From a virus (taxonomy: Duplodnaviria; Heunggongvirae; Uroviricota; Caudoviricetes), in the IMG/VR virus record IMGVR_UViG_2529292736_000009, positions 1 to 11,200 of that record: a stretch of 11,200 bases of DNA. One strand, written 5' to 3'. Of the stretch, positions 5,883-6,553 are shown piece after piece. How positions within the stretch are numbered: the first letter of the stretch is position 1; each line of letters starts with the position of its first letter. The notes under the pieces were generated by a model, which saw only the letters and a program-made list of their open reading frames with translations, was not told the DNA's origin and did not search any database. A program made the translations under genes and the position numbers.

Positions 5883-6134
5883 ATGACCAGAAAAACCAGA
5901 GATAAGACAGCGCCAAAATATCGCGCATTAGACATGACAGAGCACGCCTTAAAGGTGGCAATCAGAACGATAGACCGCCACGCCGGGGAAGGATACGCGA
6001 AAGCACATCCCGAACTGATAAGCGCATTCATGGCCACGACGGCGGCAAACTTTGCCACGCTGACAGAACGGGAGATTGCCGAAGCGGAACAGGTGACAAC
6101 CATCAACGTTAAAACCGGAGAGCAGACAGCATGA
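5883..6134 (+). CDS. Hypothetical protein (83 aa)
   Basis: ATG at 5883 with GTGAGGA SD; stop overlaps the ssb start (ATGA). Confidence 0.5.
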   Translation: MTRKTRDKTAPKYRALDMTEHALKVAIRTIDRHAGEGYAKAHPELISAFMATTAANFATLTEREIAEAEQVTTINVKTGEQTA

Positions 6135-6553
6135 CAGCACAGATAGCGGCTTACGGGCGGCTGGTGGCTGACCCGCAGTTAAAGACCACCAGCAAGGGCA
6201 CAACAATGGCGATGGCGAGTATGGCGGTTCCCCTGCCGTGCAGCCAGGCCGATGACGGAACGGCGACGATGTGGTTATCCGTCCTGGCGTTTGGCAGACA
6301 GGCTGACGCACTGGCCAGACACCACAAAGGCGAACTGGTGAGCGTGGCGGGTAACATGCAGGTAAGCCAGTGGACAGGCCAGAACGGCGAAACGCGGCAG
6401 GGCTGGCAGGTTATCGCAGACAGTGTAATCAGTGCGCGGACGGCGCGACCGGGCGGCAAAAAAGGCCAGCAGGGCCAGGCTACTGACGCACTGAACAGGG
6501 CAAAACAACAGTCTGGGAATGATGATCCGTACGGCGATAATATACCGTTTTAA
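6131..6553 (+). CDS. ssb: Single-stranded DNA-binding protein homolog
   Basis: 140 aa; OB-fold-like core aligning with E. coli SSB (WLSVLAFGRQADALARHHKGELVSVAGNMQVSQWTGQNGETRQGWQVIADSV vs [50 protein letters not shown]), Gly/Gln-rich linker and C-terminal acidic tail ending DNIPF (compare DDDIPF). Confidence 0.8.
   Translation: MTAQIAAYGRLVADPQLKTTSKGTTMAMASMAVPLPCSQADDGTATMWLSVLAFGRQADALARHHKGELVSVAGNMQVSQWTGQNGETRQGWQVIADSVISARTARPGGKKGQQGQATDALNRAKQQSGNDDPYGDNIPF

Follow-up and report, generated by a model that had tools for sequence, protein, structure and literature searches.

A divergent single-stranded DNA-binding protein gene in the replication operon of a predicted phage-inducible chromosomal island

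Introduction

Helper-driven induction, replication and high-frequency transfer have been shown for Gram-negative phage-inducible chromosomal islands (PICIs) such as EcCICFT073 (PMC6092414). The replication origins of these phage satellites are located directly 3′ of the replicase gene, and two sets of iterons flank an AT-rich region (Fillol-Salom et al., PMC6092414). Genes listed as "Primase, SSB and DUF5906" make up a replication category in Gram-negative PICIs and colocalize with mapped origins (Mageeney et al. 2023, PMC10111431). The single-stranded DNA-binding (SSB) protein is therefore already known as a PICI annotation, as it is filed there under replication. This report concerns one such protein. 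It is the product of an ssb gene in an 11,200 nucleotide (nt) stretch of viral DNA, positions 1 to 11,200 of IMG/VR record IMGVR_UViG_2529292736_000009 (the whole stretch is termed the window). The window appears to carry a relative of EcCICFT073.

The SSB of E. coli recruits at least 17 partner proteins by means of a nine-residue acidic tip, and its DDDIPF motif binds the primase DnaG (PMC10018359, PMC7145534, PMC5872125). The satellite SSB described here displays the fold of the same family and a tip of the same type, which are joined to a core that is only distantly related to that of the host protein.

The ssb open reading frame and its product

The ssb open reading frame, at nt positions 6131–6553 of the window (plus strand), starts with ATG and encodes a predicted 140 amino acid (aa) protein; the TAA stop codon at 6551–6553 is included in these positions. 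The translated sequence matches the Pfam SSB family PF00436 at residues 5–99 (E-value = 8e-16, 58.4 bits with a cut-off of 26) and the TIGR00621 ssb model with 61.4 bits (curated cut-off 53.95). A phmmer search with the same sequence matches more than 30 bacterial SSBs of solved structure. The product is a true member of the bacterial SSB family. A first-pass annotation, made from the nucleotide sequence, had proposed an SSB homolog with an OB-fold core at this exact open reading frame, and the family models and the structural comparisons given below agree with it.

An AlphaFold2 model of the satellite SSB, which is of a single chain and was built on 25 homologues, displays a five-strand OB core with the usual helix at residues 1–103, where the predicted local distance difference test score (pLDDT) is 82–92. 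Strands are assigned to residues 2–11, 16–19, 25–36, 44–54, 69–82 and 88–101, and the helix to residues 55–62. The C-terminal 37 residues (104–140) are disordered, with a pLDDT below 50. When the model is compared with the PDB by Foldseek, the top matches are all bacterial SSBs, with a probability of 1.0 and a target-normalized template modelling score of about 0.8.

The satellite SSB and E. coli SSB are 26% identical over the core; the E. coli sequence used in the comparisons is presumably that of P0AGE0. E. coli SSB has four aromatic residues that stack on single-stranded DNA (ssDNA), W40, W54, F60 and W88, and three of the four are kept in the satellite SSB. Residues W48, F54 and W81 align with W54, F60 and W88, respectively, and are invariant among homologues (alignments A1 and A2). 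The equivalent of W40 is missing because the loop is shorter. In addition, His55 of E. coli SSB, which is the ssb-1 position, is replaced by Leu.

The linker that joins the core to the tip is short and basic, with Lys and Arg residues, and is not of the Gly/Pro/Gln-rich type. At least three unrelated linker types with insertions and deletions are found among homologues, and the whole proteins vary from 116 to 149 aa in length.

The C-terminal tip

The satellite SSB terminates in ...NDDPYGDNIPF. Four of the last five residues are those of E. coli SSB, which agrees with the likeness between DNIPF and DDDIPF pointed out in the first-pass annotation, and there is an aromatic residue at position −7, as in the MDFDDDIPF end of the E. 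coli protein. Conservation of the tip was counted in the 120 closest database clusters, which show 72%–97% identity to the satellite SSB. The IPF ending is present in 108 of these and the wider motif [FYW]-x-D-x-[ILVA]-[PS]-F in 115; the five without the motif are partial, fused or frameshifted entries. Thus the tail is not a chance ending, as 115 of 120 homologues keep the motif though the linker varies in both length and sequence.

A codon alignment of 12 ssb alleles drawn from genomes shows tip residues that are constant despite the use of synonymous codons, i.e. ATA/ATT, CCG/CCA, TTT/TTC, TAC/TAT and GAT/GAC. Positions −4 and −6 of the tip vary freely. The core has a pooled ratio of nonsynonymous to synonymous substitution rates (dN/dS) of 0.17, and the alignable part of the linker one of 0.20. 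The ssb gene and its tip are under purifying selection.

Distant relatives, taken as cluster representatives at 50% identity, constitute a clade of short SSBs that start with MTAQ... and often end with F-[DN]-D-x-[IL]-P-F. An [ILVMA][PS][FWY] ending is found in 51 of 150 such representatives, and many of the others are fragments. Since the identity to E. coli SSB is only 26% and the tip is common to the distant short-SSB clade, retention of a family feature appears to account for the tail better than mimicry of this host does. A recent copy of the host gene or mimicry of the host protein is ruled out on the same two grounds. The tail had been described at first as host-like; the part of that description which concerns a tip of the SSB-Ct type stands, but the term itself is too strong for a protein of such low identity to host SSB whose tip is shared with the distant clade.

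Lineage of the satellite SSB

A search of 50,697 phage genomes found no relatives of the satellite SSB above approximately 30% identity, and the best matches are SSBs of Firmicute phages. Capture of the gene from a helper phage is ruled out, as no phage record exceeds this level. The absence of a close phage relative, together with 26% identity to host SSB, suggests an old mobile-element lineage that has long been part of small integrative elements.

Relatives of 50%–70% identity are present in a plasmid collection, where they adjoin genes for primase-helicases or VapE-type replicases. These relatives are carried on some larger plasmids and on small circular elements from Klebsiella and Enterobacter. 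An integrase accompanies at least one plasmid-borne relative, which suggests an excised satellite. A peptide-pattern scan of genome contigs, made for taxonomic spread, returned one locus (E. albertii); the derived patterns were too narrow.

One of the plasmid-borne relatives (L002; NZ_CP033626.1) is annotated as a 22.9-kb circular "plasmid" of K. pneumoniae. It carries an integrase, a P4-alpha-like primase-helicase, an ssb whose product is 69% identical to the satellite SSB, PerC, a superinfection-immunity gene and a tape-measure gene. A block that consists of a helix-turn-helix gene, a hypothetical gene, AntA/AntB and DUF4222 is present twice with identical protein accessions. This looks like an excised satellite that was assembled at more than unit length, and not like a true plasmid.

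The replication operon and the ssb module in related islands

The source element is, as judged by its gene content, a Gram-negative PICI-type phage satellite that adjoins smrA. The integrase, AlpA and replicase genes are co-oriented, an iteron origin is present, the element is about 10 kb in length, and the order is that of EcCICFT073. The view that the SSB is satellite-encoded, which was also part of the first-pass annotation, is borne out by this anatomy of the surrounding DNA, i.e. integrase, AlpA, replicase with iterons, and few late genes.

The ssb gene is the last gene of the replication operon, which comprises the replicase gene, the iteron origin, a small open reading frame of 83 codons (orf83) and ssb. 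A Shine-Dalgarno-like motif is present ahead of the ssb ATG, and this ATG overlaps the TGA stop codon of orf83 in the sequence ATGA. The same overlap is found in the annotation of six related loci (L001, L005, L006, L009, L010 and L011). The start/stop overlap suggests translational coupling of orf83 and ssb.

A megablast search shows ssb in 1,497 of 5,426 complete E. coli genomes (~28%), where the annotation, if listed, is "single-stranded DNA-binding protein". The closest copy annotated in RefSeq has about 98% protein identity and 97% DNA identity. Related loci were sampled from 12 islands and two plasmid-borne relatives. Ten of the islands have an intact ssb, and these display the order DUF4222, replicase, iteron gap, (small open reading frame), ssb. 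The iteron-rich gap between the replicase gene and ssb is found in every related locus. Islands that carry ssb are attached at five or more sites, which include tRNA-Pro/yejM, tqsA, roxA/phoQ and smrA, and the inside of a prophage capsid gene.

The ssb module occurs with three replicase families, i.e. RepA helicase, "DNA primase family" and DUF927, and its carriers include classical PICIs as well as capsid-forming ones with an HK97-type capsid, protease and portal. The iterons are specific to each replicase type. The SSBs of the window and of L001 are 98% identical; the window has a RepA helicase and AAAAGTGGG iterons, whereas L001 has a primase-type replicase and CTGTTCACC iterons. Thus the SSB alleles do not track the replicase or the iterons, which fits a generic function toward host partners and not toward one replicase. 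An SSB that acts as a replicase-specific partner is ruled out by the occurrence of near-identical SSBs behind different replicases and iterons.

Other features of the island

Table 1. Features of the window, with nucleotide positions and the evidence for each
Feature	Position	Strand	Evidence
Tyrosine integrase	1..1230	+	PF13356, PF00589
AlpA-family regulator	1609..1785	+	PF05930, E-value = 2.1e-18
YlcI/YnfO-family gene	2545..2850	-	Family match
DUF4222 gene	3918..4217	+	PF13973, E-value = 4.4e-24; directly 5′ of the replicase gene in all related loci
RepA-like helicase, island replicase (471 aa)	4214..5629	+	PF13481 AAA_25, E-value = 4.8e-44; phrog_2850; relatives annotated "helicase RepA family protein"
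Replication origin (predicted), iterons	5626..5875	.	Repeat search; at least 10 copies of the 13-bp TAAAAGTGGG(T/G)AG
orf83, small conserved protein	5883..6134	+	phrog_1231, no known function; precedes ssb in most E. coli islands
Ribosome-binding site and start/stop overlap	6117..6134	+	GGAGAG at 6117-6122; ATGA at 6131-6134 (sequence reading)
Satellite ssb	6131..6553	+	Open reading frame, PF00436, TIGR00621, dN/dS 0.17-0.20 over 12 alleles
OB-fold core, residues 1-103	6131..6439	+	AlphaFold2, Foldseek, W48/F54/W81 invariant
Disordered linker, residues 104-130	6440..6520	+	pLDDT <50; Gly, Gln, Lys-rich; length and sequence variable
Tip DDPYGDNIPF, residues 131-140, putative SSB-Ct-type partner-binding motif	6521..6550	+	Homologue conservation, synonymous tip codons
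11-bp GC-rich hairpin, 18 nt past the ssb stop	6571..6600	.	RNA fold -18.2 kcal/mol, z = -4.06; terminator scan lists minus strand
Capsid E homologue, lambda-type	6772..7812	+	PF03864
Decoration D homologue, lambda-type	7822..8163	+	PF02924
Second AlpA-like gene	8175..8558	+	PF05930
Nu1-type TerS	8751..9302	+	PF07471

Of the iteron copies listed in Table 1, one is inverted, six are in tandem at 5626–5706 and further copies are found at 5737–5873. The 471 aa replicase has no detected primase domain; the domain search gives a helicase ATPase domain only. The N-terminal region of this protein (approximately 130 aa, nt positions 4214–4620) is 90% identical to that of the 601 aa "DNA primase family" replicase of L001 (nt positions 5667–6060). 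The same N-terminal region is 50%–62% identical to that of two other islands, and the C-terminal catalytic parts are unrelated. This pattern looks like domain shuffling among satellite replicases. A role for the shared region as the iteron reader is ruled out, as the iterons of the window and of L001 differ.

The orf83 sequence has 178 homologues, nearly all in Escherichia or Shigella, and none of these has a Pfam domain. It is 70%–94% identical between islands that have different replicases. It is kept in an island that has no ssb (L014) and is missing from two DUF927-type islands in which ssb is present (L012 and L013). The AlphaFold2 model is a helical hairpin of low confidence (pLDDT 59). 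Searches of Pfam, NCBIfam and PADLOC gave no match that would identify orf83 as an SSB partner.

The hairpin located past the ssb stop codon marks the end of the replication operon, and a promoter-like site follows it upstream of the capsid gene. The T-run of the hairpin is on the minus strand only, and the hairpin therefore looks like a terminator of leftward transcription; no minus-strand gene is annotated in the gap between ssb and the capsid gene. An Rfam search of the whole window, hairpin included, gave no match. Terminator-like matches at 6465–6487 (minus strand) are inside the coding region and were discounted, as such matches are no more numerous than in shuffled sequence.

The gap between ssb and the capsid gene is an apparent cargo hotspot (6554–6771 in the window, 7422–8045 in L006, 9960–10208 in L009, 3962–4779 in L012 and L013, and 4170–8172 in L015). 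It is empty in the window, and elsewhere it contains PerC-family regulators or a ProQ/FinO-family gene. In L015 the block that truncates ssb encodes a GIY-YIG nuclease, a DEAD/DEAH helicase and a DNA methyltransferase, and it may be a defence system.

The late module extends from 6772 to 9302 on the plus strand, and the island ends before smrA at 10637. The only late homologues found in the window are capsid E, decoration D and Nu1-type TerS, and open reading frames for a portal, large terminase, tail or lysis protein were not found there. Two AlpA-family genes are present; the first belongs to the early region, and the second separates the decoration gene from terS. In another PICI a second alpA copy is reported to be able to replace a helper excisionase (Pick et al., PMC11773190). 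A 396-codon open reading frame at 1838–3028 (plus strand) overlaps the minus-strand YlcI/YnfO-family gene. It is probably not one real gene, since relatives show short Icd-like fragments or pseudogenes at this location. [quoted passage not shown] Helper-embedded PICIs like this one have been described (PMC10111431).

Proposed role of the satellite SSB

The ssb gene is read here as a working member of the bacterial SSB family within the PICI replication module, one that would aid replication of the island by way of host SSB partners and would be accessory to it. The probability given to this reading is roughly 0.6. The position of ssb, which closes the replicase-ori operon, fits a role in replication, which the first-pass annotation had suggested as an alternative to competition with host or helper proteins for SSB-binding partners. 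As predicted from its sequence, the protein would bind ssDNA in some oligomeric state, make contacts with partners through its tip and confer some benefit on replication. The gene is probably transcribed together with the replicase gene after induction of the island, and translational coupling to the small open reading frame upstream is also probable. The protein would coat ssDNA at the iteron origin, once this is opened by the RepA-like helicase, and at forks during high-copy replication. Residues Y134, D136, I138, P139 and F140 of the tip may dock in those pockets of DnaG primase, Pol III chi and PriA that accept the tip of host SSB. Docking would bring host priming and polymerase activities onto island DNA, and priming by a host enzyme is plausible because the replicase shows no primase domain. 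The satellite SSB may in this way boost or safeguard replication, and would not be an essential component of the replicon.

Several points weigh against this role. The tip DNIPF is less acidic than the host DDDIPF. The linker, too, is short and of another type than the Gly/Pro/Gln-rich one. PriA can be bound by a matching tip and yet not be stimulated, and a glycine-rich linker matters for the stimulation (PMC5531588, PMC9087215). Residues W40 and H55 are not conserved, and the binding mode and the stability of the oligomer may therefore differ from those of host SSB. In DH5alpha a plasmid is maintained by the fragment of EcCICFT073 that is labelled pri-ori (PMC6092414; the paper is silent on whether the fragment included ssb). 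L014, which is a sibling island of the RepA type, keeps orf83 but is without ssb, and in L015 ssb is cut short by inserted cargo. Thus some islands, at least, can manage with host SSB, and ssb is an accessory and not a requirement. A literature search for functional work on any PICI SSB found none, and the two founding EcCICFT073 papers (2018, 2019) do not mention ssb.

Other functions can be considered. The satellite SSB may interfere with the helper (or with the host) by sequestering host SSB-interacting proteins or by occupying ssDNA, so that replication is slowed to the advantage of the satellite. Lambdoid helpers rely on host SSB, the tip appears compatible with the pockets of host partners, and after induction the gene would be expressed from an element in multiple copies. 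Interference with helpers is known for PICIs (PMC6092414, PMC6739421), but the effect of EcCICFT073 on lambda maps to rppA (c1503), whose deletion restored plaques and gave titres nearly at the island-free level (PMC6739421). This mapping is only indirect evidence against interference by the SSB because ssb was outside that screen; the gene-by-gene screen began at c1499, which is downstream of ssb (supplementary plasmid list; PMC6739421). Interference is nevertheless quite unlikely, as ssb is in the replication operon, outside of the late/interference region, and is conserved across islands that likely use different helpers (lambda-type and HK97-type capsid modules). A function in counter-defence or as a back-up is also unlikely. 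Here the divergent SSB would sustain replication when host SSB is limiting, inhibited or sequestered, e.g. during helper infection or the SOS response, or it would mask ssDNA from immunity that senses ssDNA or SSB. With 26% identity to host SSB and ~30% to its best phage match, the lineage is so divergent that an agent directed specifically against the OB core of the host would leave it unaffected. Several E. coli defence systems, among them Retron-Eco8, AbpAB, Hachiman, Nhi and Hna, are activated by phage SSBs (PMC10732053, PMC13402713), thus SSB identity matters in phage-host conflict, and the function is an attractive one on this account. However PADLOC finds no defence or anti-defence model for the satellite SSB, and its sequence hints at nothing other than a plain SSB. 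The authors know of no lambdoid helper that makes an inhibitor of E. coli SSB.

A role confined to recombination or establishment is very improbable. In such a role the SSB would act with host RecA, RecO or RecFOR, or in the protection of ends, to help circularization or integration in a new cell, and would have no vegetative function. Many phage SSBs of the PF00436 family are annotated next to recombinases such as Erf or Sak, and the tip could recruit RecO or RecQ; against this, no recombinase gene adjoins ssb in the island, ssb always follows the replicase and the origin, and the DNA is packaged without the protein that the donor has made. That ssb is a decaying passenger gene without current function is hardly credible. 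Its absence from L014 and its truncation in L015 are what decay would give, but the dN/dS of 0.17–0.20, the intact frame, the tip in 115 of 120 homologues and the presence in ~28% of complete E. coli genomes are not. The most far-reaching proposal, which must be regarded as a long shot, is that the short-SSB lineage, confined to satellites and small integrative elements, serves as a hijacking hub. While a helper infects the cell, a host-compatible tip on a divergent OB core could draw the replisome and repair proteins of the host onto satellite DNA, and could also permit replication at limiting host SSB, or evade or decoy immunity that senses SSB. If so, the target of this molecular piracy would be replication rather than packaging.

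As an annotation the gene is routine. The NCBI pipeline names SSB in about 1,500 complete E. coli genomes, and EcCICFT073 carries it. It is mildly interesting as a distinct SSB lineage outside of the sequenced phages. The question is why about one quarter of E. coli strains keep, in a satellite, a second and very divergent SSB with an intact tip. The answer would show whether satellites depend on recruitment of the host replisome and whether extra SSBs affect defence that senses SSB.

Comparison with known systems

The closest described system is the SSB of EcCICFT073 (WP_000126698.1; NC_004431.1, 1384538–1384948). The order of replicase, iteron gap, small open reading frame, ssb and capsid module is the same. 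The two proteins share the N-terminus MTAQIAAYGRLV, the OB core and the tip, which reads ...DDPYGDDIPF in EcCICFT073, and are approximately 69% identical (measured on the SSB of L006, which is about three residues off the CFT073 protein). The EcCICFT073 protein is shorter (136 aa) and has a linker of another type (GNRRKTTGTQGNQPPAGG). Its replicase is of the primase family, and ssb is followed by PerC and then by the capsid gene c1499.

E. coli SSB resembles the satellite SSB in the PF00436 OB fold, in the W54, F60 and W88 equivalents, in a disordered C-terminus and in an acidic D-x-I-P-F tip with an aromatic residue at −7. The satellite SSB differs in a shorter L23 loop without W40, in Leu for His55 and in a linker with Lys and Arg. 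The E. coli protein has a 56 aa linker and a 9 aa tip (PMC7145534), compared with a C-terminal tail of 37 aa in the satellite SSB.

The SSBs of conjugative plasmids and of phage P1 are likewise extra SSBs on mobile elements, with a canonical tip, and are generally dispensable for the element. They can replace E. coli ssb. They are close relatives of the enterobacterial chromosomal SSB, whereas the satellite SSB is a deep and separate lineage. In addition, the genes for plasmid SSBs belong to the leading region and are expressed on entry, whereas the satellite ssb is part of a replication operon that is induced.

SSBs of temperate Firmicute phages, e.g. the ssb of the Staphylococcus phage StB20-like type, are of like size (130–150 aa), of the same Pfam family and in a replication/recombination module. 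Their identity to the satellite SSB is 28%–30%; they have another host range and are found in phages, not in satellites.

In SCCmec-type elements an OB-fold protein is the partner of A-family-polymerase primases and is encoded beside the replication enzyme of the element (PMC10061031). Here again a small ssDNA-binding OB-fold protein of a mobile element is located next to a replication enzyme. The SCCmec-type proteins however are bound in a fixed complex to a primase derived from a polymerase, and their recognition by sequence is difficult. By contrast, the satellite SSB is of the standard kind, its tip is free, and it is found with three unrelated replicase families.

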